Shown: positions 17,078-47,995 of the stretch, in pieces
Position numbering within the stretch: the first letter of the stretch is position 1
Layout: each line of letters starts with the position of its first letter
IMG/VR virus record: IMGVR_UViG_3300044716_000883
Span: 1 to 64,000 of that record
Strand: one strand, 5' to 3'
DNA length: 64,000 nucleotides
From: a virus
Notes under the pieces: generated by a model
The model's database searches: none
The model's input: only the letters and a program-made list of their open reading frames with translations
Told to the model about the DNA's origin: nothing
Translations under genes and position numbers: made by a program

Positions 17078-17078
17078 T

Positions 17079-19616: not shown

Positions 19617-19645
19617 AATTGGAAAAGTAGTATAAATAAATAAAA

Positions 19646-21071: not shown

Positions 21072-21073
21072 CA

Positions 21074-23495: not shown

Positions 23496-23496
23496 A

Positions 23497-26870: not shown

Positions 26871-27715
26871 GAGTATTAGTAACAGGAGGTGCCGGGTTTG
26901 TAGGTACCAATCTAATTAAACGATTACTAAAAGAAGGACATGAAGTAATATCAATTGATAATTACAAAACTGGATTCAAAGATAACCACCAACCAGGAGC
27001 AACATATATTTCCTTTGATATCAGAAATATTACAGATTATTCAGCTTGGGGTCCAATTGATGTAATATACCATTTAGCTGCTATAGCTAGAATACAACCA
27101 TCATTTAAAGATCCAATTGATTACTTTACAACTAATGCTAATAGTACTTTACTTATAGCTCAATACTGTGCCAAAAACAATGTACCCTTAGTATACGCTG
27201 GAAGTAGCTCACACCACTCAGGTAAACTCAAAAATCCATATACATTCAGTAAGGATGTAGGTGAGGAAATTATTAATCTATATCAAATTCATTTTGGATT
27301 AAAAGCATCAACAACTCGTTTCTATAATGTTTATGGTCCTCATCATTTGAAAGAAGGTGGATATTGTACTCTGATTGGTAAATGGGAAAAAGCAATTGAA
27401 GATGGTAATTCATTAACAATATATGGTGATGGTACTAAACGTAGAGATTTTACTCATATTGATGATATTGTAGACGCTTTAGTATTAATAAACGAAAAAC
27501 AAGCTTGGGGGAATGTGTTTGAATTAGGTAGAGGTAAAAACTACTCTATTAAAGACATAGCTGATATGTTTGGTAAAGATATTGTATATGAAGATAATAA
27601 ACCAGGTGAAGCTGATGTTACTTTATGTGATTACAGTGTTGCTAATTCAATATTAGGATGGGAACCAACAATTAACATTGAAGATTATATTAAAGATTAC
27701 TTATGCAAAAAATAA
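26867..27715 (+). CDS. NAD-dependent sugar epimerase/dehydratase
   Basis: GGAGFVG, YTFSK, RFYNVYGP, GDGTKRRDFTH. Confidence 0.93.
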   Translation: MRVLVTGGAGFVGTNLIKRLLKEGHEVISIDNYKTGFKDNHQPGATYISFDIRNITDYSAWGPIDVIYHLAAIARIQPSFKDPIDYFTTNANSTLLIAQYCAKNNVPLVYAGSSSHHSGKLKNPYTFSKDVGEEIINLYQIHFGLKASTTRFYNVYGPHHLKEGGYCTLIGKWEKAIEDGNSLTIYGDGTKRRDFTHIDDIVDALVLINEKQAWGNVFELGRGKNYSIKDIADMFGKDIVYEDNKPGEADVTLCDYSVANSILGWEPTINIEDYIKDYLCKK

Positions 27716-28875
27716 CATTTGTATTACCTAGTAGAAATAATTTAGAATTTCTTCAACTAGCATATAAATCGATTCGCAATTTAGAAACTAAACATGAAGT
27801 ATTAGTTTTAGATGATGCTAGTATAGATGGTACTCAAGAGTGGATTAAATCACTTAATGATGAGGATTTAATCACATACCACAATCCAGGACCAGAACGT
27901 ATTGGTATTGTAGGTATGTTTGATAAAGGCATTGAAATGGCTAGAACAGAAATTATATTTGCATTTCACGCTGATATGGTAGCTGCACCTAAATTAGATG
28001 AAAATATATTAAAACATCTAAAACCAGGAGTAGTAGTAAGTGCAACTAGAATAGAACCACCACTTCACCCTCCAGGAGTAGAAAAAATAACTCAAGATTT
28101 TGGAGTTGAAGATAATGAATTTAAATGGAATGAATTTAATGAATTTTGTTTAAAAACAATTGAAGAAAATAAAGATAAAACAACAGAAGGTATATTTGCT
28201 CCATGGTGTATGTATAAATCTGATTTTCTAGGACATGATGAATTATTTGCTCCTCAATCTAAAGAAGACAGTGATCTATTTAATCGCTTTGTATTAAGTG
28301 GATATAAAGTAATACAATCATGGGATGGTTTAGTTTATCACTTTACAAGTAGAGGTAGTAGATTTAATAAGCATGTTGGTGGTGGTGCTGGTAAAAATAG
28401 CAATGAATGGCTTTATACTACAACTAAAAACGGTAGAAATTTCATTCGCAAATGGGGACATTTTGTTAAGCATGATCCATACATGAAACCAATTATACCT
28501 AACAAATATAACATTGGATTTGCAGTACATAATTGCAGTTATGAATTACTCAGTGCATTAGAACCATGGTGTGACAGGATCTATATTGATAATGATTCAT
28601 TTATTTCTCGCTATGTAAATGAAGAACAACCAAATACGACTATGGATCTATTAACGAGAGTCATGAATATAAAATCTCAAAACCCAACAGATTATGATGA
28701 TGTAATAGTTGAATTTGATGCTACTAAACTAACACAACAAAGCTATCAATTAATTCAACAACTCCCAGAAATACTAACAGAATCAGGTGAAATAGGTGTA
28801 TTTGAACTAGACATATTTAATATAGCAATTAGCAGTTTAGAATTACACACACCAAAATTACTTTGTAAGTCATAA
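27703..28875 (+). CDS. glycosyltransferase, GT2 family, with a C-terminal extension
   Basis: VLDDASIDGT, FHADM, EDSDLFNR, VYHFTSRG. Confidence 0.85.
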   Translation: MQKITFVLPSRNNLEFLQLAYKSIRNLETKHEVLVLDDASIDGTQEWIKSLNDEDLITYHNPGPERIGIVGMFDKGIEMARTEIIFAFHADMVAAPKLDENILKHLKPGVVVSATRIEPPLHPPGVEKITQDFGVEDNEFKWNEFNEFCLKTIEENKDKTTEGIFAPWCMYKSDFLGHDELFAPQSKEDSDLFNRFVLSGYKVIQSWDGLVYHFTSRGSRFNKHVGGGAGKNSNEWLYTTTKNGRNFIRKWGHFVKHDPYMKPIIPNKYNIGFAVHNCSYELLSALEPWCDRIYIDNDSFISRYVNEEQPNTTMDLLTRVMNIKSQNPTDYDDVIVEFDATKLTQQSYQLIQQLPEILTESGEIGVFELDIFNIAISSLELHTPKLLCKS

Positions 28876-31672: not shown

Positions 31673-31744
31673 GCTCAGTTCGACTAAGGGTTAGGTCACA
31701 TCCCTTTCACGGATGTAATACGGGTTCGAATCCCGTACTGAGTA
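31673..31744 (+). tRNA. tRNA-Glu (TTC)
   Basis: Acceptor GCTCAGT/ACTGAGT, anticodon arm CATCC-CTTTCAC-GGATG, T loop TTCGAAT; no encoded CCA. Confidence 0.9.
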
Positions 31745-31749
31745 CACAC

Positions 31750-31825
31750 TCCAGAATAGCTCAGCAGGTAGAGCAACTGATTTGTAATCAGTAGGTCGCA
31801 AGTTCGATTCTTGTTTCTGGATCCA
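31750..31825 (+). tRNA. tRNA-Thr (TGT)
   Basis: TCCAGAA/TTCTGGA, CTGA-TTTGTAA-TCAG, encoded CCA. Confidence 0.92.
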
Positions 31826-31925
31826 AGCCGAATCGTAATCGGAAAACCAAGTGCAAAAGCTCAACCACGGCCGTGGAAGCACAGGCTAACGACCTAATAT
31901 GAGCCAGGTATAGGGGTGCTATACC
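31826..31925 (+). ncRNA. unassigned structured RNA between tRNA-Thr and tRNA-Ser
   Basis: Several short GC helices, including a 7-bp GGTATAG/CTATACC stem; no family recognised. Confidence 0.35.
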
Positions 31926-31929
31926 AAAT

Positions 31930-32016
31930 GGAAGCTTGCCAGAGTGGTTGAATGGAACGGTCTTGAAAACCGTCATACTGGAAACGGTATCTGGGGTTCG
32001 AATCCCTGAGCTTCCG
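31930..32016 (+). tRNA. tRNA-Ser (TGA)
   Basis: GGAAGCT/AGCTTCC, ACGGT-CTTGAAA-ACCGT, long variable arm, G73. Confidence 0.92.
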
Positions 32017-32021
32017 CAAAC

Positions 32022-32092
32022 TGCCCTTTAGTATAACGGTAGTACGACAGTTTTTGGTACTGTTTGTTGAGGTTCGAATCCTTGAGGGGCAA
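32022..32092 (+). tRNA. tRNA-Gln (TTG)
   Basis: TGCCCTT/AGGGGCA, ACAGT-TTTTGGT-ACTGT, GGTTCGAATCC. Confidence 0.88.
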
Positions 32093-32123
32093 CATTAGAT
32101 TATTATCTTAAAAATAAAAAATT

Positions 32124-32351
32124 ATGTTTTGGACAATTTACGCAATAAGCGTTATTTATTGCTTTTATCAATTAGTAAAACGCTACAGAGCAACTGACTT
32201 AAGAGGTGGTGGATTAGATTCAGCCCCAGGATTAGATGGAGTTATGGTACTTTTCCTAGCACCAGTATTAGCTGTAGTTGACGTTACTTTAACTTGGATA
32301 AGAATTTATAAAGAAGCTGAAGAAGCAAGACGAAGAAACAATACACTGTAG
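32124..32351 (+). CDS. small 2-TM membrane protein within the tRNA cluster
   Basis: Two hydrophobic segments; its stop overlaps the 5' end of the tRNA-like RNA. Confidence 0.55.
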   Translation: MFWTIYAISVIYCFYQLVKRYRATDLRGGGLDSAPGLDGVMVLFLAPVLAVVDVTLTWIRIYKEAEEARRRNNTL

Positions 32352-32505
32352 GGTGGCGGAATAGAGGTAGCTCCTCGTGGCAGACGTGCCCTCTCGTCTA
32401 GGGGGTGCTGATCAGAGACAGATGTAAGATATGGGTTGACCACAAAGCCGGCTTATTTGTCTTACATTGAATCGCAGCGTGCTGGTTCAACCCCAGCCCC
32501 TACAG
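32347..32505 (+). ncRNA. 159-nt tRNA-like RNA with a D-loop hairpin insertion and a 75-nt variable arm
   Basis: Acceptor TGTAGGG/CCCTACA plus G73; Leu-type D arm; anticodon arm CCCTC-TCGTCTA-GGGGG; T arm GCTGG-TTCAACC-CCAGC. Confidence 0.7.
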
Positions 32506-32510
32506 CAAAT

Positions 32511-32596
32511 GCCTTGGTGGTGAAATAGGTAGACACGCAGGACTTAAAATCCTGTTCGCAGCAATGCGAGTGCGAGTTCGATTCTCGCCTGAGGCA
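32511..32596 (+). tRNA. tRNA-Leu (TAA)
   Basis: GCCTTGG/CTGAGGC, CAGGA-CTTAAAA-TCCTG, variable arm, A73. Confidence 0.92.
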
Positions 32597-32611
32597 CAAA
32601 TAATTATATAC

Positions 32612-32944
32612 ATGGCATGTCACTGCTTATACTTGAAAAATTCAGATGAATTTTACTCATTATTAAAGAGTAGAGATTCAGATATGATCATGAAGATGGT
32701 CAAATGTGTACTTAGTGCAGCTAAACGAAATAAAAAAACCATCGATATATTTGATATCACGTTCAAAAATACAGATGGTTTGATTTTTACTATTGATAAA
32801 TCGCAGTATACCGAATTATTAAGCAACTGCCTAAACGATCTAATCGCACTTGAAGAATACGAATTGTGCGCTGAGATCAAGAAATTTATTGATAAGAAAT
32901 CAAAAAGTAAAAAATCAGGGGATGTCCAGGTATTTGATCTATAA
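32612..32944 (+). CDS. hypothetical protein with a UVR-like C-terminal motif
   Basis: ALEEYELCAEIKK; the track start at 32564 lies inside tRNA-Leu so 32612 is preferred; the last 27 nt overlap the tmRNA. Confidence 0.55.
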   Translation: MACHCLYLKNSDEFYSLLKSRDSDMIMKMVKCVLSAAKRNKKTIDIFDITFKNTDGLIFTIDKSQYTELLSNCLNDLIALEEYELCAEIKKFIDKKSKSKKSGDVQVFDL

Positions 32945-33283
32945 TCTGGAGGTAGTACCACACGCGGACAAAGCATGAATGTCCTTAAACCCTTGCGAAA
33001 CAATAACTGTAGAATTATCTACTATGACCTTCGACGACATGATGTCTTTCGTAGGTGCGAACGAGTACGCATTAGCGGCTTAATTAGCGTCGGGTGTAAC
33101 ATCCTAGGAACAGAAGTTACAAGCAGTTTACCCAAACGTTAAATGGGTTGGTGGAACGCTATACTAACCATATGGCCCCAATTCTTTTGGAACAGTAGTA
33201 AGATTAAACTGTTAAACTAAGCGTGTGAGACGTTGGTATTATTGTTCGTTATAGAGACACCGGTTCGACTCCGGTCATCTCCA
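32918..33283 (+). ncRNA. ssrA: tmRNA
   Basis: GGGGATG/CATCTCC acceptor with G3:U70 and A73; T arm ACCGG-TTCGACT-CCGGT; tag ORF 33009-33083 VELSTMTFDDMMSFVGANEYALAA* after ATAACT. Confidence 0.93.
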
Positions 33284-33290
33284 CAACTTA

Positions 33291-33317
33291 AAGCAACCGT
33301 AACTGGTTGCTTTTTTT
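33291..33317 (+). terminator. intrinsic terminator after the tmRNA
   Basis: AAGCAACCG-TAAC-TGGTTGCTT followed by a T run. Confidence 0.85.
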
Positions 33318-33353
33318 CATCATATTTATAGGTAACCATTATAAATTAAAAAG

Positions 33354-34004
33354 ATGAAACAAAAAATTAGTGCTATCGCCATAGGCATGCGCGACAAATT
33401 AGTACTGGGTTTTTTTATGCTTGTTGGAGTCATTATTATGGCTGCCCTAGTAGCTCAGTTGTACTTCGTATATTGTGAGATTTTCAAATCACACGAAGAA
33501 AACCTACAAATGGTTAATGAAATTAACTGGAAAATTGACGGTAGGTGGAAAAACGACCCAAACAACATTTGGTATAACGCAGATGAACATATCTGGGTTC
33601 AAAGCGTAACTAACAAAGTAGTTATCGGTAAATTAGCAGGTAACCGCAACTTAGAGTTCGGTGTTAAAAACGTACTAGAAGAGTACTTACAAGAAAAAGG
33701 ATTAAACCTATCCCCAGATGCTGAACAAAAAATTAAAGTAGAAATCATTTATTTAGATGTTTTAACTACTAAGAAAAATGTGTCTGTATTTCATAAAAAC
33801 GAACAAGAAGTCGTTATTCGCTTAAAAGGTATACTATACAAAGACGGTATTAAAGAGAAAGAGGTAATAGTTGAAGAATCATCATCTGAAATCTCTATGT
33901 CAACTCTAATAGTAGATGAAGGTGGTAAATTCAACCAAACAAGCTTAAGTAATGCACTTAAGAAGGGTTGTGATAAATTAATCACAAAACTATTAGAAAA
34001 ATAA
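33354..34004 (+). CDS. membrane-anchored CsgG/LpoB-like alpha/beta protein
   Basis: N-terminal TM; C-terminal KFNQTSLSNALKK parallels KFNQSTVSIATKK of 39877. Confidence 0.45.
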   Translation: MKQKISAIAIGMRDKLVLGFFMLVGVIIMAALVAQLYFVYCEIFKSHEENLQMVNEINWKIDGRWKNDPNNIWYNADEHIWVQSVTNKVVIGKLAGNRNLEFGVKNVLEEYLQEKGLNLSPDAEQKIKVEIIYLDVLTTKKNVSVFHKNEQEVVIRLKGILYKDGIKEKEVIVEESSSEISMSTLIVDEGGKFNQTSLSNALKKGCDKLITKLLEK

Positions 34005-35633
34005 ATGAAAAAACTATTACTAATTATTGGGATACTAATAGTATCCATAACAACTAATGCTCAGATAGTTGTAAACCAATCTATTTCTGCTGGACCTTAT
34101 AAAGTAGGTGATACAGTTACTGTAACTTATACAGTTGATAAGGGTATAACTAAACCACGTTATTTCTGGTTAAGATACCAATTTAACAATAAGGCTTTAA
34201 CTTATTTATCAACTACATTCTCACAGGGTAGTCAAGCTCAAACATTCTATACTGGTTGGACTAACTATAGATTTACACCTAAATCAAATATAAGCGATAC
34301 ATCGCTGTATGGTCAGTATCAAGCTACACCTTGGTCGTATGCTGTAAACGCAGATTGGAATGTTGGACAATTAGCAATCCAAAGAGCAGACAGAAGTATA
34401 GATGGTATAATAGCAACTCAAAGATATATTCTTAAAGACCAAAATGTATATGAGAATTTTCATGATTTAGATTTATCATATGCGTTAGACAGTGCAACTG
34501 GTAATAATATTCCGTTTGTTAGAACAACTGCTGTTCCTTTATCAATTACTGGAGTAAGTGGTAATACATCTTTCTTTAAAGTAAGAGTATTATTTCCATC
34601 TGGATACAATATCAGTGATCATTCAGTTCAGTTAATGAGATTAAAAACTGATGGTAGTGGTGATATTGATTGGTCACAACAACCAATTTTACAGAAAGCA
34701 TTAGATGCTAGTGGTGAGGCTATATTCACAACAGGTGTTAAAGTTGGTGATTCGTTAGGTGTATTCGTTGGAAACGCATCATCTAAAAGCTGGATGAATA
34801 ATGTAATAACTGTATCAGATGCATATAGAGCATTTTTAGGACATTCTCAAACTGATATAGCAGGTAATAGTACATTCTTTACAAGACCTACACTTGAAAG
34901 AAGAATTGGTAATGTGACTAGAAACGATATGACATTTACTGAAGCAGATGCTTATTATTCATTTGCACACGTAATGGGAATTGATGTATCTGCTAATGCT
35001 TTCATTCCAACATCAACATCTACATCTTGGAGATGGCATAGTGGATTATTAAATCAAAGTTGGTTAGATGGTACTTCAAGATATAGAGTGTATATTACTC
35101 AACCTGCACAAACAGTAGATGCTGTATTTGCTTGGGGTGGTGACTTAGATTGGTCACATTCATCTCATCCTGATACAATCGCTGCAAGAATATCAAGTGG
35201 TGTATTTACAAATAGTACAGGTGAAACTATAAAAATTGGTACTATGTCTTACAAAGCACCAGTACTAGAGAAAGCAACATTAAGTTTAACCTCAGCAATT
35301 GAAAATAACAAAGTAACATTATCAGCAAACTTAACTAAAGCGGATTTAGCTGGTTTAGAAGTAATTATGCAATATGATAGTACTAAATTAACATTAACAG
35401 ATGTTATATTTGATGCTGGTAGCACAATTACAAATTTCTCAACACACAATGATGGTAGATTAACATTTGGTTCTATTGATCAATTAAAGACAGCTAGAAT
35501 TAAAGTTGGTACTCCATATAAATTAATATTCACGCCTAAAGTACCTTTAAGTAACACTGCAGGTTTATTCTATACAGTATTAGCAGATGCAGTTGATGCG
35601 ACTGGTAAAAAGATAGAATTAATAGTTGAATAG
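34005..35633 (+). CDS. secreted cohesin / dockerin-like / cohesin protein
   Basis: Signal peptide TNA|Q; cohesin-like GDTVTVT...YQFNNKALTY and AGLEVIMQYDSTKLTL; dockerin-like ITVSDAY...FTEADAY...WGGDLD. Confidence 0.65.
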   Translation: MKKLLLIIGILIVSITTNAQIVVNQSISAGPYKVGDTVTVTYTVDKGITKPRYFWLRYQFNNKALTYLSTTFSQGSQAQTFYTGWTNYRFTPKSNISDTSLYGQYQATPWSYAVNADWNVGQLAIQRADRSIDGIIATQRYILKDQNVYENFHDLDLSYALDSATGNNIPFVRTTAVPLSITGVSGNTSFFKVRVLFPSGYNISDHSVQLMRLKTDGSGDIDWSQQPILQKALDASGEAIFTTGVKVGDSLGVFVGNASSKSWMNNVITVSDAYRAFLGHSQTDIAGNSTFFTRPTLERRIGNVTRNDMTFTEADAYYSFAHVMGIDVSANAFIPTSTSTSWRWHSGLLNQSWLDGTSRYRVYITQPAQTVDAVFAWGGDLDWSHSSHPDTIAARISSGVFTNSTGETIKIGTMSYKAPVLEKATLSLTSAIENNKVTLSANLTKADLAGLEVIMQYDSTKLTLTDVIFDAGSTITNFSTHNDGRLTFGSIDQLKTARIKVGTPYKLIFTPKVPLSNTAGLFYTVLADAVDATGKKIELIVE

Positions 35634-35634
35634 T

Positions 35635-37908
35635 ATGAAACAAATATTAGTTACATTATTCTTATTGATATCATTTTTAGGGTTCGGACAGAGTGTATCT
35701 GCTCCGGACTCTAAATCGTTCTTACCTTCTACAGCAGGGCAAGATGCTAGTGGGTTTAGTTTAAGTGGTTTTAGCTCAACTGCTAATTTACTAGCATCAA
35801 TCAGTTTAGTTAATCCACCAACTGGTACAACATTTAACCTAACTACAACAACAGGTCTAACCGCAGCAAGTGGATTCACTTTAGCAGGTAATAAAACTCG
35901 TTTAGTGGTAACAGGAACAATGGCTAATATCAATACGGCATTAGCATCTCTAAAAGTAAACACAGGTTCGGTAAGAGGTAATGTTCAATTATCGGTAGCA
36001 GCAACTGTAAACCCAACTGGTTTCTTTTACAATGGAACAAACGGACACTTTTATAGACCAATATCAACAACGGCAACTTATACAGGAGCAAGAGCGGCCG
36101 CTGAATTAACAACATTCAAAGGCCAGCAAGGATATTTAGTAACAATAACTTCAGCCGATGAAGATGCTTTTATTTTTAATAATGTACCACAAGGTAATAT
36201 TTGGTTTGCATTAACCGATGAAGCAAGTGAAGCAAGATGGACAATTGATGCAGGTCCTGAAAAAGGAACTTTAATTAAAATCAATAATGGTCAATTAAAT
36301 GGAAACATACCAGGTCAATACAATAACTGGGCACCTGGTGAACCGAACAATAGTGGTAATGAAGATTACGCAGTAACTAAATGGAGTGGTGGTTCTCAAT
36401 GGAATGATTTACCAAATGGTTTTTGGAATCCTTATGTAATTGAATATGGAACTTGGACTAATCCTGATGATGCTACATTCACTGAATTCTATACTAATAG
36501 TGTAACACACTCAAATGGTGAAGTATTAACAGCACGCTTTAATTTTGATTTTGGAGGTAATGTAGATGAAACTAGATTCTCAACTAAAGCAAATACATTT
36601 GTAAACAATACTTGGAATGAAGTAAGTAGTATAACTAGACCATTAAGTGGTTTAGGTAAAGTGGATGCAACGAGCCTATTAGATACCCTAAAAGTTAATG
36701 ATGGTATTAAAGCAACTATAGTACCAGGACAAGTAGAATGGTCACTTATAAACCCATATGAAACATCAAGAAACGGACATAGATTGCAAATCGATGAAAG
36801 AGTATTTAGTGGGACTGGTATTAACTTAAACACAGTAAAATATGTAAAGTTATTTGATATATACGAAGGTCCAATCGCACCAATGGATTTTAATGGATGG
36901 TGGAAACAATGGGTAGTACCTGGAAATGTTAATTTGGCTAGTAAAGTAACAGCAAGTTCATTTCAAAATAATATACGATTACAAGATGGGTGGTATGCAT
37001 TTAGAGCAGATTATTCATTTGCACCAAATACAATGTTTAAACAACATGGTATTGAATTAACAACTAATCAAACTGATTTAAATACATTATATAATAGTAT
37101 AGTAACTGTATCAGATGTGTTTATAGCATTTAAAGAATTATCAAATGGTGGTATATTCGGAAATGAAACTGGTAATGAGTTTGCGTATGGTATTCAATAT
37201 ATGAATGCTGATGTTGATGGCAATGGTGTATTCAATGAAGCAGATACTTATAGACTATTACAACATTTAACAGGAGTAAAATCACTTACAGAATATTCAA
37301 CATTAACGTACTTAATGAAATTGTATGGTAAATCGGATTACGACGCTATAACTAAATCAAATTGGAATACACAGTTTAACTATACAAGAAATTTATACCC
37401 ATTCAGCCTAAATACAGGTACACTTAACAACACTTACAATATAGATGTAACTTGGGTTGGTGATGTAAACTTATCCCACTCAGCAATACCTGCTTCAAAT
37501 AACGTAACAATTATGTCTGTAGGTACTACATCTGTACCAAATGAAATTAACGCTTCAATTGTTACTGAGGTAAGTGATAAAATATATGCTTACATTACTT
37601 TAGACCCACTACAACAACAAGTAGTGGGAACCCAATTCCAATTAAATTATGATAATTCAGTATTGAAATTTGAAGGTGTAGAATTTAAAACTAAGGGTAG
37701 TCCAATGAACTATGGTACTAATAAAAATAGCTTTATAAATTTAGGCTCACTAATTAGTGATGGTAGTACTACATTAGATAATACTACTGAATATAAAATA
37801 ACATTCACATCAACAACTAAACTTGATAATATATTAGGTTTAATATCAATAGGTGCTACTGATGCCGTTAATAAAGCAGGCGTACAATTAAAAGTTAAAG
37901 TAAAATAA
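35635..37908 (+). CDS. secreted C-type lectin / dockerin / cohesin protein
   Basis: Signal peptide GFG|Q; CTLD GHFY...YLVTITSADE...NWAPGEPNN...WND; ADVDGNGVFNEAD Ca loop; VGTQFQLNYDNSVL cohesin-like. Confidence 0.75.
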   Translation: MKQILVTLFLLISFLGFGQSVSAPDSKSFLPSTAGQDASGFSLSGFSSTANLLASISLVNPPTGTTFNLTTTTGLTAASGFTLAGNKTRLVVTGTMANINTALASLKVNTGSVRGNVQLSVAATVNPTGFFYNGTNGHFYRPISTTATYTGARAAAELTTFKGQQGYLVTITSADEDAFIFNNVPQGNIWFALTDEASEARWTIDAGPEKGTLIKINNGQLNGNIPGQYNNWAPGEPNNSGNEDYAVTKWSGGSQWNDLPNGFWNPYVIEYGTWTNPDDATFTEFYTNSVTHSNGEVLTARFNFDFGGNVDETRFSTKANTFVNNTWNEVSSITRPLSGLGKVDATSLLDTLKVNDGIKATIVPGQVEWSLINPYETSRNGHRLQIDERVFSGTGINLNTVKYVKLFDIYEGPIAPMDFNGWWKQWVVPGNVNLASKVTASSFQNNIRLQDGWYAFRADYSFAPNTMFKQHGIELTTNQTDLNTLYNSIVTVSDVFIAFKELSNGGIFGNETGNEFAYGIQYMNADVDGNGVFNEADTYRLLQHLTGVKSLTEYSTLTYLMKLYGKSDYDAITKSNWNTQFNYTRNLYPFSLNTGTLNNTYNIDVTWVGDVNLSHSAIPASNNVTIMSVGTTSVPNEINASIVTEVSDKIYAYITLDPLQQQVVGTQFQLNYDNSVLKFEGVEFKTKGSPMNYGTNKNSFINLGSLISDGSTTLDNTTEYKITFTSTTKLDNILGLISIGATDAVNKAGVQLKVKVK

Positions 37909-38243
37909 TGAAAAAATTACTATTCATATTATTACTATTATCAGCTTGTAAAAAGGTAGACGTACCACCACAACCACCAACGGTACAGGATATATTCAGC
38001 GTTGCTGAATCTACTGTGTCTAATGGTGGAGATATTTACTTTGATTTGAAAGCAGCAGGTACATATACCTTAACAATGTTAGACCAAACCCAAAACGTAA
38101 TCACAAGGGAGCGTATTAGTGGTAAAGTTGGCCAAAACAAATTAAAAATATACACTAGTTCGCTACCAGTTAAATATTTATATCTAGTACTGGAAGACCA
38201 ATCCCGTACTCAAATAGGTAAAACCGCCATTAAAATTAATTAA
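37908..38243 (+). CDS. lipoprotein consisting of a T9SS C-terminal-domain-like module
   Basis: Lipobox LSAC; YTLTMLDQTQNVI...GQNKLKIYTSSLP...YLVL...TAIKIN. Confidence 0.6.
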   Translation: MKKLLFILLLLSACKKVDVPPQPPTVQDIFSVAESTVSNGGDIYFDLKAAGTYTLTMLDQTQNVITRERISGKVGQNKLKIYTSSLPVKYLYLVLEDQSRTQIGKTAIKIN

Positions 38244-38254
38244 AGATGAACGCA

Positions 38255-38620
38255 ATGAAGAAAATATTAGCAGTTGCAGCTATCCTATTTGTAGGATGTA
38301 CTAAAGTGGATGTACCAACACCACAACCCCCAGTAACAAACGCTGAATTAAAAATAACTAGCGCAGTAGGTATTAAATTACAATCACCATTCGTAACAAA
38401 CGAAGTTGCTATGAATGTTAAAAGTGATGTAGCGCAGTCAGTTACAATTAGAATATTTGATATCTCAAACAGAGTAGTATCAAAAGAAACAGTAAACGTA
38501 ATCGTTGGTGATAATATCTTAAAAGTATACACATCAGCATTACCACCATCAGCGTACAGAATTGGATTATTCGATGCTAATGGTAATCAATTAGGAATCA
38601 CAGATTTTAACAAACTATAA
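38255..38620 (+). CDS. lipoprotein consisting of a T9SS C-terminal-domain-like module
   Basis: Lipobox FVGC; SPF...VTIRIFDISNRVV...GDNILKVYTSALPPSAYRI; paralog of 37908. Confidence 0.65.
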   Translation: MKKILAVAAILFVGCTKVDVPTPQPPVTNAELKITSAVGIKLQSPFVTNEVAMNVKSDVAQSVTIRIFDISNRVVSKETVNVIVGDNILKVYTSALPPSAYRIGLFDANGNQLGITDFNKL

Positions 38621-38632
38621 AAATTAAATAAC

Positions 38633-38941
38633 ATGTCAGAAGAAGTAGAACAAGAATCAACTGGTAAATCGTTTAAAAACATTATCATTGGTCTAGTTAG
38701 TACAGTTACACTAGGTGTAGGTGGATTTATTACTAACAAATTAACAGGTGGTGGTGATGAAGCAGCTCCTGCACCAGCAGCAGCTCCAGTAATTAACATT
38801 ACTAACAGCAACCAACAACAACAAGCAGCAGGTGGTAAAACTGTAATCATTAAAGAGAAAGCAGCAGAACCAGCTAAACCAGCAGCTCCAGTTAAGAAAA
38901 AAGACGGTGACGAATTTAAAGAAAAAGAACCACAGTGGTAA
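38633..38941 (+). CDS. single-TM protein with Ala/Pro/Gln linkers
   Basis: One TM, then AAPAPAAAP and QQQQ tracts. Confidence 0.55.
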   Translation: MSEEVEQESTGKSFKNIIIGLVSTVTLGVGGFITNKLTGGGDEAAPAPAAAPVINITNSNQQQQAAGGKTVIIKEKAAEPAKPAAPVKKKDGDEFKEKEPQW

Positions 38942-38958
38942 TTTATAAAAAATAAAGT

Positions 38959-39567
38959 ATGCAACCAAATACAGGATTTAGAGAACTATTAAATAAAATG
39001 ATGTCCCGCAGATGGTACATCACAGCTATGGTATTAGGTGGATTCATTGTAATCATTGCTGGTATATTCGCAGCAATCAGTTTACAAACACCAATGGCCG
39101 CAGCATGGAAAGAATTATTAATGTTATTATTAGGTGCCTTCATTGGTAGCTATGGTAAAATCATCGACTACTGGTTCAGTGATACTGACAAAGATAAAAT
39201 GTTAGTACAGAAAATGGATGAAGAAGATGGTGTAGCACTAGGTAGTGTTAATGACATTAAAGAATCAAACAAACCATTTACTCCATTAATTCCAGATGCT
39301 TTCGTAGCAGGTGCAGCAGCCGCTAGAGATTTAGCTGTAGTTGAAAACAAACAAAACTTTGAATTAGCTGCTGATCAACAAGAACATGATCAAAAGTTAG
39401 AAGCTGACCAACAAGAGCACGAGCAGGAAATGGCTAAATTAAAATTAGAACACGAACTTAAAGCACATAGATATTGCGAACATGAATGGGGTGACTCAGA
39501 CAATGATGGTGAACTAGAATGCCAAAAATGTGGTCTATTAAAAGATGCTTACGACGAATCTCACTAA
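38959..39567 (+). CDS. 2-TM membrane protein with a coiled coil and C-terminal Cys/His cluster
   Basis: Two TMs, a duplicated ADQQEH motif, CEH...CQKC. Confidence 0.55.
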   Translation: MQPNTGFRELLNKMMSRRWYITAMVLGGFIVIIAGIFAAISLQTPMAAAWKELLMLLLGAFIGSYGKIIDYWFSDTDKDKMLVQKMDEEDGVALGSVNDIKESNKPFTPLIPDAFVAGAAAARDLAVVENKQNFELAADQQEHDQKLEADQQEHEQEMAKLKLEHELKAHRYCEHEWGDSDNDGELECQKCGLLKDAYDESH

Positions 39568-39585
39568 CCATTAAAAATTAAAAGT

Positions 39586-39825
39586 ATGAATTTCAAACAG
39601 TGGGTTATTGATCTATTCAAAGATGAAAGAGGATCAACTTCAGTAAAACCGGTTATCGCGTTTGTAGGTGCAATGTTTTTATGTGTAACAATGATGTTAA
39701 ATTCATTTTCACATGCAGATTTTGCTCCATCAGCAGAACTAGTAAATGCAGTAATGATTATTACTGGTATTGGAATGGGTGCTGATACATTTGACAAATT
39801 CTCTCATAAAAAGAAAGAAGATTAA
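39586..39825 (+). CDS. small 2-TM protein (holin-like topology)
   Basis: Two TMs and a charged C-tail KKKED. Confidence 0.45.
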   Translation: MNFKQWVIDLFKDERGSTSVKPVIAFVGAMFLCVTMMLNSFSHADFAPSAELVNAVMIITGIGMGADTFDKFSHKKKED

Positions 39826-39835
39826 AAACAAAACT

Positions 39836-39861
39836 AAAGGGAACTTCGGTTCCCTTTTTTT
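39836..39861 (+). terminator. intrinsic terminator with a UUCG loop
   Basis: AAAGGGAAC-TTCG-GTTCCCTTT followed by a T run. Confidence 0.9.
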
Positions 39862-39876
39862 AAATCAAATTTATGT

Positions 39877-40593
39877 ATGAAAAATTTATTAATATTATTA
39901 GGTCTATTACTGACCATAAGTGCGGGTGCCCAAACTGTCGGATCAACGAAGACAGAGCAGTACAAAGCTTCATTCGAAACCAAAATAGACATTAGTCAAT
40001 TTTTAAATTATGAAGGCAAAACAATACCGATTCAGATTCTCAAATGCGGTATTGGTGATGATCTTTATGAGCAATATCCTGAACTCAAAGAAAAGAAAGT
40101 GGGTTTGGGTGTGGCTAACATCACGCTTGAATATCTTGAAAATCTTAACCGCTTTACATTTACAGAAGATAAAACAGAAATTAAAAACAGAATGGTAAAG
40201 CAATTCCAAGCATCACAAGCTGGAATTAGCCAAGATAAATTAGATGGTAGAGGTAAGATTAGATTAGCTCATTACTTCGTTGAAATTGAAGTATACGATT
40301 GGTCAGTTTCAGATGACGAAGAAGTAAACTTAAAAGACGGAGTTAAAAATACAATGGTTACACGTTTAGGCTTACAAGTACGCTTTACAGATGCTGAAAC
40401 AGGAGAAATTATAGCAGCATCTGGTTTAGGTGAAGCTAAAACAACAAGAGAATTAACATTATTATCTGACGCAACAATAGATCCAGTTAAATTTAATCAA
40501 TCAACAGTTAGTATTGCGACTAAAAAAGCATTAGACATTGCTTGTGCTCGTATATTACCTCGTATGATTAAAAAGGGTGTATTTCCAAACTAA
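39877..40593 (+). CDS. secreted CsgG/HfaB-family protein
   Basis: Signal peptide AGA|Q; EYLENLNRFTFTE, AHYFVEIEVYD, LQVRFTDAETGEII motifs. Confidence 0.7.
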   Translation: MKNLLILLGLLLTISAGAQTVGSTKTEQYKASFETKIDISQFLNYEGKTIPIQILKCGIGDDLYEQYPELKEKKVGLGVANITLEYLENLNRFTFTEDKTEIKNRMVKQFQASQAGISQDKLDGRGKIRLAHYFVEIEVYDWSVSDDEEVNLKDGVKNTMVTRLGLQVRFTDAETGEIIAASGLGEAKTTRELTLLSDATIDPVKFNQSTVSIATKKALDIACARILPRMIKKGVFPN

Positions 40594-40598
40594 TTAAA

Positions 40599-40706
40599 AT
40601 GGGAACAAAAGCAAAAAAGAAAAGAGCAATGAGATCTAGAAAATCTGGACTTAAAACAGTAGCTCAAATAAGCAAAAATTTAGCAATCCTTTCAAAACTA
40701 AAGTAG
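40599..40706 (+). CDS. 35-aa highly basic micro-protein (not in ORF track)
   Basis: MGTKAKKKRAMRSRKSGLKTVAQISKNLAILSKLK* fills the gap exactly. Confidence 0.5.
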   Translation: MGTKAKKKRAMRSRKSGLKTVAQISKNLAILSKLK

Positions 40707-40707
40707 T

Positions 40708-41535
40708 ATGAAAAACTTATTATTTTTATTAGTATTTCTTCCAACATTAGCTTTATCACAAGTTAGCACTTGGAGAGGTGCTACGTCAACACCTAGAGTA
40801 TCAACACAATCATTTCAACAATCAACTCCACAGCGAAATGTTAGTAGCTGGAGAAACGAATCACCAAGAGAATTTAATAGACCTGCAAGAACAAGATCAG
40901 GCTCAAATATTATTGTTAATGATCCTTGGTTAGGTAATAACTGGGGTTGGGGATGGAATAGATGGGATATGTGGGGTGCACCAGCATTTGGTTGGAACTT
41001 TTGGCAACCAATGTGGTACTGGAATGATTGGGGTTATAGACAACCTGCAAGAATCTATGTATATGATAATGGCAAGAGAGATACTATTAAAGGCAAAAAA
41101 CCAATTATCAGCTTTGGTATTCAGGGAACAACAGATGATCAAGTGGGTGGTTTCTTTACAATAGGAAATAAAGGATACTTTATAGTAGAATATACAGCAA
41201 GTAATCTAAGAGATAACTCAACATTCTTTCCTTTTGGAAATATAGCTCAAGTTGATTTTCCAATGGTAAACGACTTAGTTCAAAGACAGAGCTTTTATGT
41301 TGGTGTAGGTAAGCGAATTAAAAGAACAGGTATCCATATGATGATTGGAACTGTAAGTGAAGACGCTAAATGGAGAGGTAAAGATGATTTAGGTTACATA
41401 ACATTTCCTAAGTACTTAGATAGATTTACAACAGTAAAAATAGGTGCACTACACGACTATAAAAATTTTACAATAAAGTTTGATTATGACCCAATAATCA
41501 ATAATAGAACTTTTGGATTGGGTGTTAATTTCTAA
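40708..41535 (+). CDS. secreted protein with a Trp/Gly/Asn-rich linker and predicted outer-membrane beta-barrel
   Basis: Signal peptide ALS|Q; alternating-strand pattern; ends FGLGVNF (BAM beta-signal type). Confidence 0.65.
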   Translation: MKNLLFLLVFLPTLALSQVSTWRGATSTPRVSTQSFQQSTPQRNVSSWRNESPREFNRPARTRSGSNIIVNDPWLGNNWGWGWNRWDMWGAPAFGWNFWQPMWYWNDWGYRQPARIYVYDNGKRDTIKGKKPIISFGIQGTTDDQVGGFFTIGNKGYFIVEYTASNLRDNSTFFPFGNIAQVDFPMVNDLVQRQSFYVGVGKRIKRTGIHMMIGTVSEDAKWRGKDDLGYITFPKYLDRFTTVKIGALHDYKNFTIKFDYDPIINNRTFGLGVNF

Positions 41536-41536
41536 A

Positions 41537-42988
41537 ATGAAAAAATGGTTAGTAAGTATATTATTAATCGTTATATGTTTATTCGCTAAGATAGCGAACG
41601 GACAAGTTTACACTCAAACATTCATTGACAAATGCACTGGTCAAACCAAAGTAGCTACAACTACAATGGTTAACGGAAACGCTATCGTTTCATTCTATGG
41701 TCAAATTAAGACATTTACTCCAGCGCAAGTAACAAACGGAGAATTACAAGCTTGGCTTCAAGCAACGTATGTATCCTACAATTCACTAGCATGTCCAGTA
41801 TCAACTCCCGTAGTAACACAGACAGTGACTCAGGCAGTGTCGCAGGCAGCATCACAAGCAGCATCATCAGCAGCAAGCTCAGCAGCGTCATCAGCCGCTT
41901 CATCAGCAGCCTCAAGCGCAGCAAGTGGAGCAGCTTCAGGAGCAGCAAGCGGAGCCGCAAGTGGAGCAGCATCAAGCGGAGCAGCAGCTTCAAGTGGCGC
42001 TTCAGCCTCAAGCGGTACAGCAGCATCCTCGAGTGGATCTTCATCCCAATCATCATCGGGTTCGTCCTCGTCTTCATCTTCTGGTTCGTCATCCTCATCT
42101 GGGGAATCGTCTTCATCAAGCTCATCTGGAAGCAGCAAAAGCGAAAGCAAATCAGAGACAAAATCAGAATCAAAGAGCGAATCTAAATCTGAAAGTAAAA
42201 GCGAATCTAAAGAAGAAAAGAAATCAGAAACTAAAGAGGAAAAAAAAGAGGAGAAGAAAGAAGAATCTAAAGAGGAAAAAAAGGAAGAGAAAAAAGAAGA
42301 TAAGAAAGAAGACAAAAAGGATGATAAGAAACAAGCCAAAATGAATCCTATAATGATAGGTTCAGATCTAACTGTAGCACAAAATCCTACAGGTGGATTC
42401 ACACCAATCATATCATTAAGTATGTCTCAAGCATCTGCTACAGGCGAATCAAGTTGGGGTATATCAAGTATGGTATGGGCTGATTTAAAGTCATTCGCTT
42501 TATCTGCGAATAAAAGCGATATGAACTTTAAGAACGGAGTACTCAAATCAATAGATGCTTATTCATATACCGTTGCTTACGTCGCAGGTACGCATATGAC
42601 TTTTGGTGGTTATACTCACATTATACCACATCCAAAATATGGTACGTTCGGCTATAACTTATCTGTTATTAATATTAAATTGAAAGAAGCTGTTGGTTAC
42701 TCATATTCAATGATGTCATCAACAACAGCATTCTGGACTAAACCATATCAAATAAGCAGAAAATCAACATTATCTCCAGGTGTATTCTTAATGGCGTCGC
42801 CATACACGTACAACAGCAAATCAGGCAGTACATGGAATTACAATGTAATGGGTTTGGTGGGCACAGGATATAGTTTTAAATTGAGTAAACGATTTGGGTT
42901 TAATATTGACTATAAAGCAAGCTTATCAACAGTACCAGGTACACCAATACTTAGCTTCTTCCTTGTAGGTTCAAGATTACAACTATAA
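41537..42988 (+). CDS. secreted protein with Ser/Ala and Glu/Lys low-complexity stalk and predicted C-terminal beta-barrel
   Basis: Signal peptide ANG|Q; SAAS/GAAS and KEEK repeats; amphipathic strands ending FLVGSRLQL. Confidence 0.6.
   Translation: MKKWLVSILLIVICLFAKIANGQVYTQTFIDKCTGQTKVATTTMVNGNAIVSFYGQIKTFTPAQVTNGELQAWLQATYVSYNSLACPVSTPVVTQTVTQAVSQAASQAASSAASSAASSAASSAASSAASGAASGAASGAASGAASSGAAASSGASASSGTAASSSGSSSQSSSGSSSSSSSGSSSSSGESSSSSSSGSSKSESKSETKSESKSESKSESKSESKEEKKSETKEEKKEEKKEESKEEKKEEKKEDKKEDKKDDKKQAKMNPIMIGSDLTVAQNPTGGFTPIISLSMSQASATGESSWGISSMVWADLKSFALSANKSDMNFKNGVLKSIDAYSYTVAYVAGTHMTFGGYTHIIPHPKYGTFGYNLSVINIKLKEAVGYSYSMMSSTTAFWTKPYQISRKSTLSPGVFLMASPYTYNSKSGSTWNYNVMGLVGTGYSFKLSKRFGFNIDYKASLSTVPGTPILSFFLVGSRLQL
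41849..42330 (+). repeat. low-complexity coding repeats (A-A-S, S-S-G, K-S-E-S, K-E-E-K)
   Basis: Imperfect 12-nt repeats such as GCAGCATCA and GAAAAGAAA within the CDS; boundaries approximate. Confidence 0.7.
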
Positions 42989-42998
42989 ATTTGGGTTG

Positions 42999-43021
42999 GG
43001 CAAAATTTTAACGTATATTTA
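42999..43021 (+). promoter_or_regulatory. class I promoter (GGCA-N11-TATATTTA; TTTG 20 nt upstream of the box)
   Basis: Bipartite motif plus host-type -33 element. Confidence 0.65.
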
Positions 43022-43056
43022 TTCTCGCTTAATTAATTAACAAAAACACAATTATT

Positions 43057-43218
43057 ATGAAAAAAGCAACATTAGTATTCGTAGTAGCATTAACATTAGC
43101 TGCTTGCGGAACTGGAAACACTGAGACTGTAGCAACTGATTCAACTGCTGTGTCTGCTGATACTACTGCTGTAGTAGCTGCTGACTCGACGAGTGTTGAT
43201 TCAACTACTACTAAGTAA
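43057..43218 (+). CDS. 53-aa lipoprotein with four D-(S/T)-T O-glycosylation sequons (not in ORF track)
   Basis: MKKATLVFVVALTLAAC|GTGNTETVATDSTAVSADTTAVVAADSTSVDSTTTK*. Confidence 0.75.
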   Translation: MKKATLVFVVALTLAACGTGNTETVATDSTAVSADTTAVVAADSTSVDSTTTK

Positions 43219-43224
43219 TGATCG

Positions 43225-43247
43225 TGGCCTGTCTTTTGGACGGGCCA
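43225..43247 (+). terminator. GC-rich hairpin, probable terminator
   Basis: TGGCCTGTC-TTTTG-GACGGGCCA; weak T tail. Confidence 0.55.
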
Positions 43248-43636: not shown

Positions 43637-43854
43637 GTAAAAAATGTATTAAATGTTTACGTTGGTATCCTAAATTTATGTTTAGAAAGGATGGTAGGGT
43701 ATACCAAGTTGCAACTGAATTAGGTAAAGTTAGAACATGTAGAATATGTTCTTGGAAAGAATCAGGTAGAGATAGTGTTGTAAGATGGAATGGAACTAAA
43801 TTTGAAGTTGTAACTTTAACATTAAAGCAACGAATTAAAGAATTATTAGGATGA
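43624..43854 (+). CDS. small CxxC...CxxC protein
   Basis: CIKC...CRIC. Confidence 0.5.
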   Translation: MVGLGKKCIKCLRWYPKFMFRKDGRVYQVATELGKVRTCRICSWKESGRDSVVRWNGTKFEVVTLTLKQRIKELLG

Positions 43855-43991
43855 TAGCACTAATTATATCAATTGCAGTAGCAACTATTATATCTATACT
43901 TTGGGTTAGAGGTATAGATAACATGAAACAAAATCCTGACTATAAGGGATACGATTTATTTGATGAAGAAGATAAAAACAATATAATATGA
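43851..43991 (+). CDS. 46-aa single-TM protein (not in ORF track)
   Basis: MIALIISIAVATIISILWVRGIDNMKQNPDYKGYDLFDEEDKNNII*; ATGA overlaps at both ends. Confidence 0.55.
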   Translation: MIALIISIAVATIISILWVRGIDNMKQNPDYKGYDLFDEEDKNNII

Positions 43992-44248
43992 AACAATACA
44001 TTAGCCCAATATTAACAGCATGCTCATTAATTGCCCTGTTAACAACAATTTACTTTCAGAATGAAAGAGTTAATCAATTTAAATTTGAAGTAAAAACATT
44101 AAAATCAACAGCAGATAGTTTACACGATGAATTATTTATTAGACACGTTATAAATGAAAGATACGAGTTATCTCTAGATCATTTACAGAAAGTAAATCCA
44201 AATGCTGCTCTTGAGTTTGTAAATTTTATGAACCACGAGACTGAATAG
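43988..44248 (+). CDS. TM plus coiled-coil hypothetical protein
   Basis: N-terminal hydrophobic helix. Confidence 0.55.
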   Translation: MKQYISPILTACSLIALLTTIYFQNERVNQFKFEVKTLKSTADSLHDELFIRHVINERYELSLDHLQKVNPNAALEFVNFMNHETE

Positions 44249-47339: not shown

Positions 47340-47362
47340 TAGAGTTATGGATATTTATAGGC

Positions 47363-47995
47363 ATGAAGAAATGCCTAATATCCCTACTATTAACATTAGT
47401 AGCAGTTATATCTTATAGTCAAGATGTAGTTACATTAACACACAAGTCGTATACAACACATTATAGTAAGTCAAAACACTATCCAGTTAAGGTAGAGTGG
47501 TGGGTTACTAGAGCAAATTTAACATGTGCTGTTAAAGCCAAGCGTGGTGATAAATTTATAGCTGATCCTAAATTACCAGCCGAAACAAATTTACAAGCAG
47601 ATTATACAGGTCAAGGATTCGATCGTGGACACAATTTCCCAGCAGCAGACGCTGCTTGTGATCAAGTGGCAAACGACGAATCATTTTATTTTAGTAACAT
47701 GACCGCTCAATACCCAGCACTCAATCGTGGTGATTGGAAAGCATTAGAAACATTAGTACGCGACTACGCTATTAAAGAAGATTCAGTACACGTTTGGTGT
47801 GGGTCAGTAGGTGTAGCTAAGAAAATTGGTACAACATCAGTTCCAACACAGTGTTGGAAAGTAATATACTTCAAGAAATCAAACGAATGGATGGCTTTCT
47901 TATTTGATAACAATACAAGTAAAGCAGACGGACTTAAGAATAATGAAGCAACATTAGCTGATATTGAAAAATTAACTGGCTTTAAATTTAAGTAA
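47363..47995 (+). CDS. secreted sugar-non-specific DNA/RNA endonuclease (NucA/EndA family)
   Basis: Signal peptide SYS|Q; FDRGHNFPAA, FSNMTAQYPALNRGDWKALE, VPTQCWKVI. Confidence 0.92.
   Translation: MKKCLISLLLTLVAVISYSQDVVTLTHKSYTTHYSKSKHYPVKVEWWVTRANLTCAVKAKRGDKFIADPKLPAETNLQADYTGQGFDRGHNFPAADAACDQVANDESFYFSNMTAQYPALNRGDWKALETLVRDYAIKEDSVHVWCGSVGVAKKIGTTSVPTQCWKVIYFKKSNEWMAFLFDNNTSKADGLKNNEATLADIEKLTGFKFK

Follow-up and report, generated by a model that had tools for sequence, protein, structure and literature searches.

The stretch of DNA analysed here, referred to as the window, comprises 64,000 nucleotides and is the first part of the IMG/VR virus record IMGVR_UViG_3300044716_000883, a complete phage genome of 179,381 bp with direct terminal repeats. 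Between positions 33354 and 43247 it carries a tightly packed, co-oriented block of 12 genes on the + strand, together with a basic micro-open reading frame (micro-ORF) of 35 aa. All 12 gene products possess an N-terminal signal peptide, lipobox or membrane segment, features registered in 31 of the 230 other genes of the phage by the same crude scan for signal peptides and transmembrane hydrophobicity, and such a run of exported products is far beyond chance. An earlier note, made from the sequence alone, had described 14 consecutive genes at this place, almost all of them exported or membrane-bound; the location, the single strand and the export are borne out, and the count is 13. The features of the block, in window positions, are the following.

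33290-33313, + strand: terminator-like hairpin, 10-bp stem then a T run, ending the upstream block of tRNA and transfer-messenger RNA (tmRNA) genes
33322-33329, + strand: ATATTTAT, late-type promoter-like motif, 24 nucleotides 5' of the g01 start
33354-34004, + strand: g01, membrane-anchored through an N-terminal transmembrane segment, with a Lipoprotein_16/YajG-like domain (possibly of the LptE/CsgG superfold)
34005-35633, + strand: g02, secreted paralogue of g03, carrying a cohesin-like domain at the C-terminus and a dockerin-like segment
35626-37908, + strand: g03, secreted, with an N-terminal beta domain, C-type lectin, variable middle, dockerin-like segment and cohesin
37908-38243, + strand: g04, small lipoprotein (lipobox LSAC), paralogue of g05
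38246-38620, + strand: g05, small lipoprotein (lipobox VGC), probably a beta-sandwich
38633-38941, + strand: g06, bitopic membrane protein with a Pro/Ala/Lys-rich tail, read from sequence
38959-39567, + strand: g07, protein with two transmembrane segments, an invariant juxtamembrane block and a Cys/His cluster
39586-39825, + strand: g08, 79-aa protein with two transmembrane segments and a charged tail, holin-like in shape only
39836-39857, no strand assigned: bidirectional hairpin between g08 and g09, 9-bp stem, T runs on both strands
39877-40593, + strand: g09, CsgG-family protein with a leader of the signal-peptidase-I type, assigned by AlphaFold2 (AF2), Foldseek, VIA-align and transitive homology
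40599-40706, + strand: micro-ORF, 35 aa, very basic, occupying the gap between g09 and g10, without export signal
40708-41535, + strand: g10, secreted, with a Trp/Gln/Arg-rich N-terminal half and a beta-rich C-terminal half; invariant Q18, ends in GVNF
41513-42988, + strand: g11, with a signal peptide, 85-aa head, low-complexity stalk and 215-aa probable outer-membrane barrel
43015-43022, + strand: second ATATTTAT motif, 5' of g12
43057-43218, + strand: g12, 53-aa lipoprotein (lipobox AAC) with four Bacteroidota-type O-glycosylation sequons
43225-43247, + strand: terminator-like hairpin closing the block, 10-bp stem with 6 GC pairs

In five families a glutamine stands right after the hydrophobic leader (Q20 in g02, Q22 in g03, Q19 in g09, Q18 in g10 and Q23 in g11), and it is invariant in the alignments of 13-29 relatives, which agrees with the five signal peptides exposing Gln at +1 that had been noticed before. 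At the predicted cleavage sites, this residue fits the Q-rule of Bacteroidota, according to which substrates of signal peptidase I carry Gln at +1 (PMC5837995; PMC10653852). Signal peptides of this kind have previously been noted in proteins of Porphyromonas gingivalis phages (PMC10367356). Lipoboxes are present in three block products, g04, g05 and g12, the last of which packs four D-S/T-x sequons into its 53 residues and corresponds to the "sequon-rich lipoprotein" of the first description.

The phage origin of the record is confirmed by its 179-kb length, its terminal repeats and its T4-like polymerase, terminase, portal and sheath genes. All long ORFs lie on the + strand. Those of the window include a T4-type DNA polymerase, a clamp loader, GroEL and many glycosyltransferases, and the genes for terminase, portal, tail fibre, sheath and baseplate hub are found further along the record, beyond the window. 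Among cultured phages, Flavobacterium phage immuto is the nearest to it (the large terminases are 54% identical), and the same phage DNA is present in lake-water metagenomes from more than 10 studies. The source is a phage of Flavobacterium-type bacteria which, at 179 kb, is large but not a jumbo phage.

The class II motif that had been seen to precede the locus is the octamer ATATTTAT at 33322, located after the tmRNA gene and the hairpin at 33290-33313. Over the whole phage, 53 copies were counted on the + strand and 7 on the - strand, about 22 being expected. Most stand 4-40 nucleotides 5' of a start codon, and the genes preceded in this way include terminase, portal, tail fibre, sheath and baseplate hub. 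Furthermore, 20 of 41 distinct relatives have the octamer 5' of g01. The octamer is a candidate late (structural-gene) promoter element of this phage group and, since it precedes both the structural genes and g01, the block is probably expressed late. It is also located just 5' of about 30 other genes of the phage. An occurrence inside g04 at 38174, conserved in relatives, coincides with the conserved residues K-Y-L-Y-L and was not counted as a promoter. A weak hint of transcription comes from contigs of RNA libraries (two wetland metatranscriptomes and two cDNA libraries), which match g02, g03, g07, g09, g10 and g11 at 90-99% identity; these contigs belong to relatives, carry-over of DNA is possible, and the parts left uncovered mean nothing.

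Distribution of the block in phages and host genomes

A search with g03 recovered 54 viral loci, and in more than 40 of them the order g01-g02-g03-g04-g05-g06-g07-(g08)-g09-(g10)-g11 recurs, with protein identities of 45-95%. These relatives are uncultured phage contigs. A reduced form of the module occurs in immuto, where it comprises the lectin gp013, the cohesin protein gp015, gp016, gp017 (54% identical to g09), gp018 and gp019; the GenBank record of immuto already annotates a lectin and a cohesin protein. The shorter layout of immuto and of loci L047-L051 shares a core made of a g01-like protein, the lectin, the cohesin protein, g06, g09 and g11. Synteny, which the earlier note had suggested as a check, thus identifies the block as a conserved unit. 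When the block was compared with GenBank phages by megablast no match was obtained, and in a tblastn search of 50,697 GenBank phage records with g09 only the immuto phages matched.

Accessory genes are inserted at fixed points of the relatives' modules, and 65 of the 109 are exported as well. About 15 loci encode a recurrent secreted protein of 297 aa between g03 and g04 (L010:13157-14050 and homologues) which is missing from this window and ends in ..GTNFQF, a C-terminus typical of outer-membrane proteins. In one relative, a TonB-dependent-receptor-like gene with Plug and OMP_b-brl_3 domains above the Pfam cut-off lies inside the module (L005:15774-18032) and is followed by a lipoprotein of 400 aa.

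Host genomes were covered by scanning 185,579 species genomes for the pattern of the g09 alignment. Seven loci were found, all of them in metagenome-assembled genomes, and five carry further module genes; in one of these five, L058, tail-fibre and endolysin genes flank the module. The one clearly chromosomal locus (L063) has a CsgG-like gene alone, in an unrelated context. Moreover, the g09 profile was found in two of 301 sampled genomes from the family of a module-bearing Flavobacterium bin, in both cases on contigs with module neighbours. The possibility that the intact locus occurs in bacterial chromosomes as an ordinary operon, named in the earlier note as a refutation, is not supported by these data: the block is not an ordinary host operon.

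Protein families encoded in the block

None of the 12 block proteins of the window reaches the threshold of a Pfam, NCBIfam or PHROGs family, and their assignment relied on structural models, alignments of relatives and transitive homology. The clearest case is g09, a protein of 238 aa which, with a mean column identity of 73%, is among the most conserved products of the block. Its AF2 model (predicted local distance difference test, pLDDT, 73.5) matches CsgG in Foldseek with E 7e-7 and a probability of 1.0, and VIA-align superimposes the two with Z 11.6-11.8 over 157-178 residues (root-mean-square deviation, rmsd, 3.9-4.1 Å over 157-175 residues). The runners-up were Cj1090c (Z 10.5, 1.3 Z below CsgG) and PelC (2.5 Z below); the fold group of PelC, LptE and TraT aligns less well, with Z 7-9 (TraT 7.5), and the best viral match is an annotated phage CsgG. 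A chromosomal protein of Ignavibacteriales, which shares 36% identity with g09 across 95% of its length, reaches 28.6 bits for Pfam CsgG PF03783 (cut-off 20.8), and distant relatives retrieved by the g09 profile (E 3e-34 and 7e-24) carry the same family. By fold and transitive homology, g09 is a divergent member of the CsgG family. In comparison with the CsgG channel of curli (type VIII) secretion, it is about 30 residues shorter and has a signal-peptidase-I leader with Gln at +1 instead of a lipobox. No hit to the CsgE, CsgF or CsgA families was registered among the block proteins. Among the distant relatives of g09, the 519-aa protein P0215 of a metagenome contig (L069:843-2402) additionally contains a caspase-like Peptidase_C14 domain; the contigs of these distant relatives are too short for informative gene context.

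Two CsgG-like proteins had been proposed for the block, and this holds for g09, while g01 is only suggested as the second. Its score against PF03923 is 24.6 bits, close to the cut-off of 25, and it has a transmembrane anchor instead of a lipobox; in its sister Atlas clusters, 19-52% of the members carry PF03923. A C-terminal KFNQ-S/T motif is shared by g01 and g09 (hhalign E 5e-4, probability 32%), which makes a CsgG-like nature of g01 plausible.

The two large proteins g02 and g03 are paralogous over their last ~290 residues, g02 250-542 matching g03 473-760 (hhalign 99.4%, E 1e-21). Protein g03 has 760 aa and a signal peptide with the invariant Q22. Its lectin region retrieves CEL-I, mannose-binding protein and mincle in profile searches of PDB (E down to 1.6e-5), and the sugar-binding motifs EPN 239-241 and WND 259-261 are invariant in 28 relatives. 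Against the Pfam C-type lectin family PF00059 (cut-off 22.6) the immuto homologue scores 57 bits and g03 itself 21.3, just under. Judging from these conserved residues, g03 carries an intact predicted Ca-type sugar-binding lectin site, although AF2 models the domain poorly. The EPN motif predicts ligands of the mannose/GlcNAc/glucose type. Within g03, conservation is highest in the lectin (0.88) rather than lowest, and nothing in the block resembled a reverse transcriptase; for these two reasons the idea that the lectin might be the target of a diversity-generating retroelement was dropped.

For the C-terminal domain of g03, nearly all of the top ~45 Foldseek matches are cohesin modules, with a target template-modelling score (TM-score) of up to 0.69 and an rmsd of 2.4-3.6 Å over ~135 residues, so that the modelled domain has a cohesin fold. 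The window's g02 and g03 remain below the threshold of Pfam Cohesin PF00963, the two proteins scoring 22.3 and 18.1 bits against a cut-off of 24.1 (E 0.003 for g02), whereas immuto gp015 and the L058 homologue exceed it and close relatives of g03 carry a precomputed PF00963 hit. When the C-terminus of g03 was used to look for homologues, nothing but fragments from this phage family came back. Both the lectin and the cohesin named in the earlier note are thus upheld, the former by its invariant motifs and profile matches and the latter by its structural matches. The dockerin fares less well. In its favour there is one canonical D-x-D-x-N-G-x-F-x-x-x-D calcium loop at g03 529-540, within a helical segment; the first repeat of g03 and both repeats of g02 are degenerate, and the family match is weak. 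A complex prediction pairing the g03 dockerin-like segment with the cohesin regions of g02 and g03 gave a score of 0.01 with the partner's own fold uncertain, and counts neither way. Protein g02 also has the invariant Q20 in its signal peptide and five D-S/T-x sequons. Like cellulosome-type and non-cellulosomal cohesin-dockerin assemblies, g03 displays a cohesin fold with a helical dockerin-like segment upstream; it differs from them in having both parts in one chain, a single canonical loop and no enzymes attached, and in belonging to the phage of a Gram-negative host.

The paralogy of the lipoproteins g04 and g05 is evident from the comparison of g04 with the g05 family (hhalign 99.1%, E 2e-18), and g05 has weak matches to DUF3244 (E 0.006) and to a type A tail of the type IX secretion system (T9SS; E 0.09). 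Both had been described as resembling T9SS C-terminal domains. This is not supported: profile comparison with the true domains of sister modules yields a probability of <5% with misregistered alignments, and the resemblance is limited to a residue pattern. No T9SS type A sorting domain (PF18962 / TIGR04183) was found in the whole phage at E 0.01. In the sister modules, immuto gp015 and the 631-aa protein of L051 have a cohesin domain followed by a T9SS type A sorting domain (Por_Secre_tail) above the Pfam cut-off, and the cohesin proteins of L047-L051 end in the same manner as T9SS cargo of Bacteroidota, unlike those of the window phage. These sister modules are predicted to route the cohesin protein via the T9SS of the host, which argues for a destination on the cell surface. 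Among the versions examined, those with the cohesin-T9SS fusion (immuto, L047-L051) do not have lipoproteins of the g04/g05 type, and those whose cohesin proteins have nothing beyond the cohesin domain at their C-terminus (this window, L058) have them. The complementary pattern is suggestive, although direct profile comparison does not link the two. For the third lipoprotein, g12, the match to the NCBIfam PG1828-family lipoprotein (E 1e-5) stays under the cut-off.

Among the membrane proteins, g06 has been kept in 39 loci as well as in immuto, as gp016. Members of the g07 family share an invariant 40-residue block after the second transmembrane segment, running from W50 to G91, and the invariant residues C173, H175, C188 and C191 forming a C-x-H...C-x-x-C cluster. 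Most relatives of g07 also have, in their consensus, repeated calcium-loop-like D-x-D-G-D-G motifs, which are hardly present in this window. Protein g08 has a mean column identity of 82% across 13 relatives, and its weak PHROG matches are to families of unknown function; a paralogy of g07 and g08 was considered and rejected on comparison. The "basic micro-protein" is recognised in the 35-aa micro-ORF, which is kept directly 3' of g09 in seven relatives (L036, L005, L023, L024, L029, L025 and L032) at 57-97% identity and with conservative substitutions.

Two beta-barrels had been predicted, and the evidence for them is uneven. The head of g11 has two invariant Cys in an alignment of 28 relatives and is followed by a stalk of 110-230 aa, with the composition changing from Ala/Ser to Ser, to Ser-Glu-Lys and to Glu-Lys; in its C-terminal domain, scattered Pfam matches in 5 of 27 members (OMP_b-brl, OMP_b-brl_2, DUF5777 and Porin_4; best E 0.004) weakly suggest an outer-membrane barrel. 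For g10, which is optional in relatives and present in 14 loci, the barrel is a candidate on the strength of an Atlas similarity to outer-membrane barrels of 0.88-0.89, to be taken as a lead only, and of its terminal Phe; it obtained no Pfam and no PDB hit. No relationship between the putative barrels of g10 and g11 was detectable on comparison, and PDB profile searches with g01, g02, g05, g10 and the g11 C-terminal domain returned nothing meaningful.

Possible roles in the infected cell

With moderate confidence, we read the block as a clade-conserved and probably late phage module which puts phage proteins into the envelope and onto the surface of the infected Flavobacterium-type cell. In such a module, g09 would form an oligomeric ring or channel in the outer membrane, in which g11, and g10 where present, would be inserted as barrels, and g11 would hold out a small head, closed by disulfide bonding, at the end of a long and flexible stalk. 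Located in the inner membrane, g01, g06, g07 and g08 would serve to anchor the complex or to assemble it, and the lipoproteins g04, g05 and g12 together with the cohesin-ended g02 and g03 would build a sugar-binding layer on the cell surface. The layer might act as a glue, fastening the infected cell, or else its debris, to particles or host cells nearby, or it might cover the surface glycans so that neither progeny nor rival phages adsorb to the dying cell; these two purposes, adhesion or aggregation and receptor masking, are ranked about equally. The lectin-tipped scaffold of the earlier note is supported in part: the phage origin, the conservation of the block and the CsgG, lectin and cohesin folds agree with it, and the binding of cohesin to dockerin-like parts, the scaffold, the lectin at its tip and the functions named there are hypothetical.

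A more specific version, which we put forward only tentatively, would be a self-contained surface-display system, in which the CsgG-type ring and the stalked barrel anchor a Ca-dependent lattice of cohesin/dockerin and lectin proteins on the dying cell that ties it, and later its debris, to sugars of host cells nearby or, alternatively, masks the debris from the progeny. In the first case, the progeny would be freed beside new hosts, a structural solution to "sibling capture"; in the second, the coat would stop progeny from adsorbing to debris.

Several points weigh against a surface module. The placement of the block proteins is so far a prediction, and the late timing is read from a sequence motif. 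In g09, a search against Pfam CsgG PF03783 gives no hit at E 0.1, and the leader ends in ..SAGA followed by the invariant Gln with no Cys near the cleavage site, so that the lipid anchor of CsgG is missing. The dockerin-like segment of g03, taken alone, reaches 17 bits against Dockerin_1 PF00404 (E 0.007; cut-off 22.9), and the barrels of g10 and g11 are putative. Furthermore, g02 and g03 of this phage are without a T9SS domain that could take them across the outer membrane, and a CsgG-type pore passes unfolded chains only. Lastly, in at least one relative, L058, the module starts directly after the endolysin gene, a position which also fits a role in lysis.

Under that explanation, the main rival, which we consider unlikely, the block would be an accessory of egress or lysis: the CsgG-like pore, g07, g08, g01, g06 and the outer-membrane proteins would time lysis or breach the outer membrane, and the lectin/cohesin proteins and a nearby exported nuclease would act on the debris. 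Such a role has been proposed by Buchholz et al. for the CsgG/CsgF genes of phage Melnitz (PMC9004378), a published hypothesis in the same direction. The late-type motif on the block and the size and shape of g08, which are those of a class II holin, are in agreement with it, as is the exported EndoG-like nuclease, linked to the module in immuto and 4 kb downstream here. However, the endolysin homologue of this phage is encoded at 69808-70401, 27 kb off, and no holin or spanin family matches any block gene. Twelve genes far exceed the needs of known lysis cassettes, and it is hard to see what part in lysis would fall to two large lectin/cohesin proteins whose sugar-binding residues are conserved.

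The intact sugar-binding motifs of the lectin and the surface-type lipoproteins could also be read as an apparatus for nutrient capture, by which the phage would add glycan-binding outer-membrane parts to feed the infected cell, comparable to the glycan-binding surface lipoproteins and TonB-dependent transporters encoded in the polysaccharide loci of Bacteroidota. One relative's TonB-dependent-receptor-like gene points the same way, but it is an occasional insert and not part of the core. In addition, no SusD-like protein, glycoside hydrolase or transporter was found in the block, and a late promoter motif is a poor fit to metabolic support; we hold this reading to be very improbable.

Least credible of all, in our judgement, is that the exported lectin/cohesin proteins meet the virions only after lysis and bind the glycosylated virion proteins of the phage itself, serving as additional adhesins on free particles. 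The heavy glycan synthesis of the phage, with glycosyltransferases at 15.6-29 kb of the window, and the promoter-like motif common to the block and the structural genes would suit it; the membrane-embedded g06-g11 would not be needed, and the T9SS sorting domains of the sister modules point to attachment to cells. Moreover, we know of no tailed-phage virion part that is assembled outside the cell.

Returning to the reading of the block as a surface module, phages are known to alter the surfaces of their hosts by single proteins, such as exclusion lipoproteins and O-antigen-modifying enzymes, and the surface-exclusion lipoprotein Llp of T5 is sent to the host envelope. A conserved dozen of exported proteins would be a much more elaborate intervention. 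The block would resemble Llp, TraT and the Q-rule proteins of Porphyromonas phages (PMC10367356) in directing proteins of a mobile element to the host envelope and so altering its surface; TraT has the CsgG-like fold in common with g09, and the Porphyromonas phages likewise use Gln+1 signal peptides. Those are single small proteins, whereas here a multi-protein module with sugar-binding parts is found.

The earlier note had stated that no equivalent was described, which is too strong: CsgG/CsgF phage clusters and phage proteins following the Q-rule are published, and the lectin and cohesin of immuto are annotated. Clusters of CsgG/CsgF genes with unknown function are reported in pelagimyophages (HTVC008M group) and in the Methylophilales phage Melnitz, and cell aggregation ("sibling capture") and lysis control have been suggested for them (PMC7029224, PMC9004378). 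They appear to be the closest published analogue of the block. In both cases an operon of exported proteins surrounds a CsgG-fold protein in aquatic T4-like myophages, without recognisable curli subunits. This block differs in having no CsgF or CsgE homologue, a CsgG relative of a separate subfamily, three times the size and Bacteroidota hosts. The CsgG-fold part is the only one in common, to which the block adds a lectin, cohesin/dockerin-like proteins, paralogous lipoproteins and a stalked barrel protein, as well as T9SS cargo in the sister versions. The literature search found no paper on Flavobacterium phages combining lectin and cohesin; phage CsgG envelope clusters are already published, and the combination of lectin, cohesin, lipoproteins and stalked barrel is not described in the papers found.

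The module has a wide distribution among the phages that infect Flavobacteria in lakes and in the sea, and these hosts are major degraders of algal polysaccharides. Whatever its role, be it aggregation, receptor masking or egress, it may affect the spread of infection on particles and in blooms. As a second and richer case of why aquatic myophages carry CsgG genes, it is also experimentally reachable, immuto and its host, Flavobacterium sp. LMO8, being in culture.

Neighbouring genes

Upstream of the block, a long stretch of glycosyltransferase, aminotransferase and GtrB-like genes extends from 15620 to 28875 of the window. The investment of the phage in glycans seems heavy and may relate to the lectin of g03. 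The cluster at 31673-33284, immediately 5' of the block, comprises five tRNA genes, for Glu, Thr, Ser, Gln and Leu, and a tmRNA gene (32918-33284) encoding the tag peptide ANEYALAA. Two called ORFs at 32564-32944 and 32975-33142 overlap the tRNA and tmRNA genes and are probably not real.

Just 3' of the block, at 43851-44248, there are two small overlapping genes without family assignment, whose layout is spanin-like or holin-like. The first product has 46 aa, with an N-terminal transmembrane segment and an acidic tail; the second has 86 aa, with a lipobox-like leader and a helical C-terminal part.

47363-47995, + strand: exported EndoG/NUC1-like nuclease, loosely associated with the block; DRGH motif, Gln directly after the signal peptide

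This nuclease gene is preceded by the late-type motif at 47351, and its product is homologous to immuto gp012 (E 3e-13), whose gene immediately precedes the immuto module. The nuclease may belong, if loosely, to the module.

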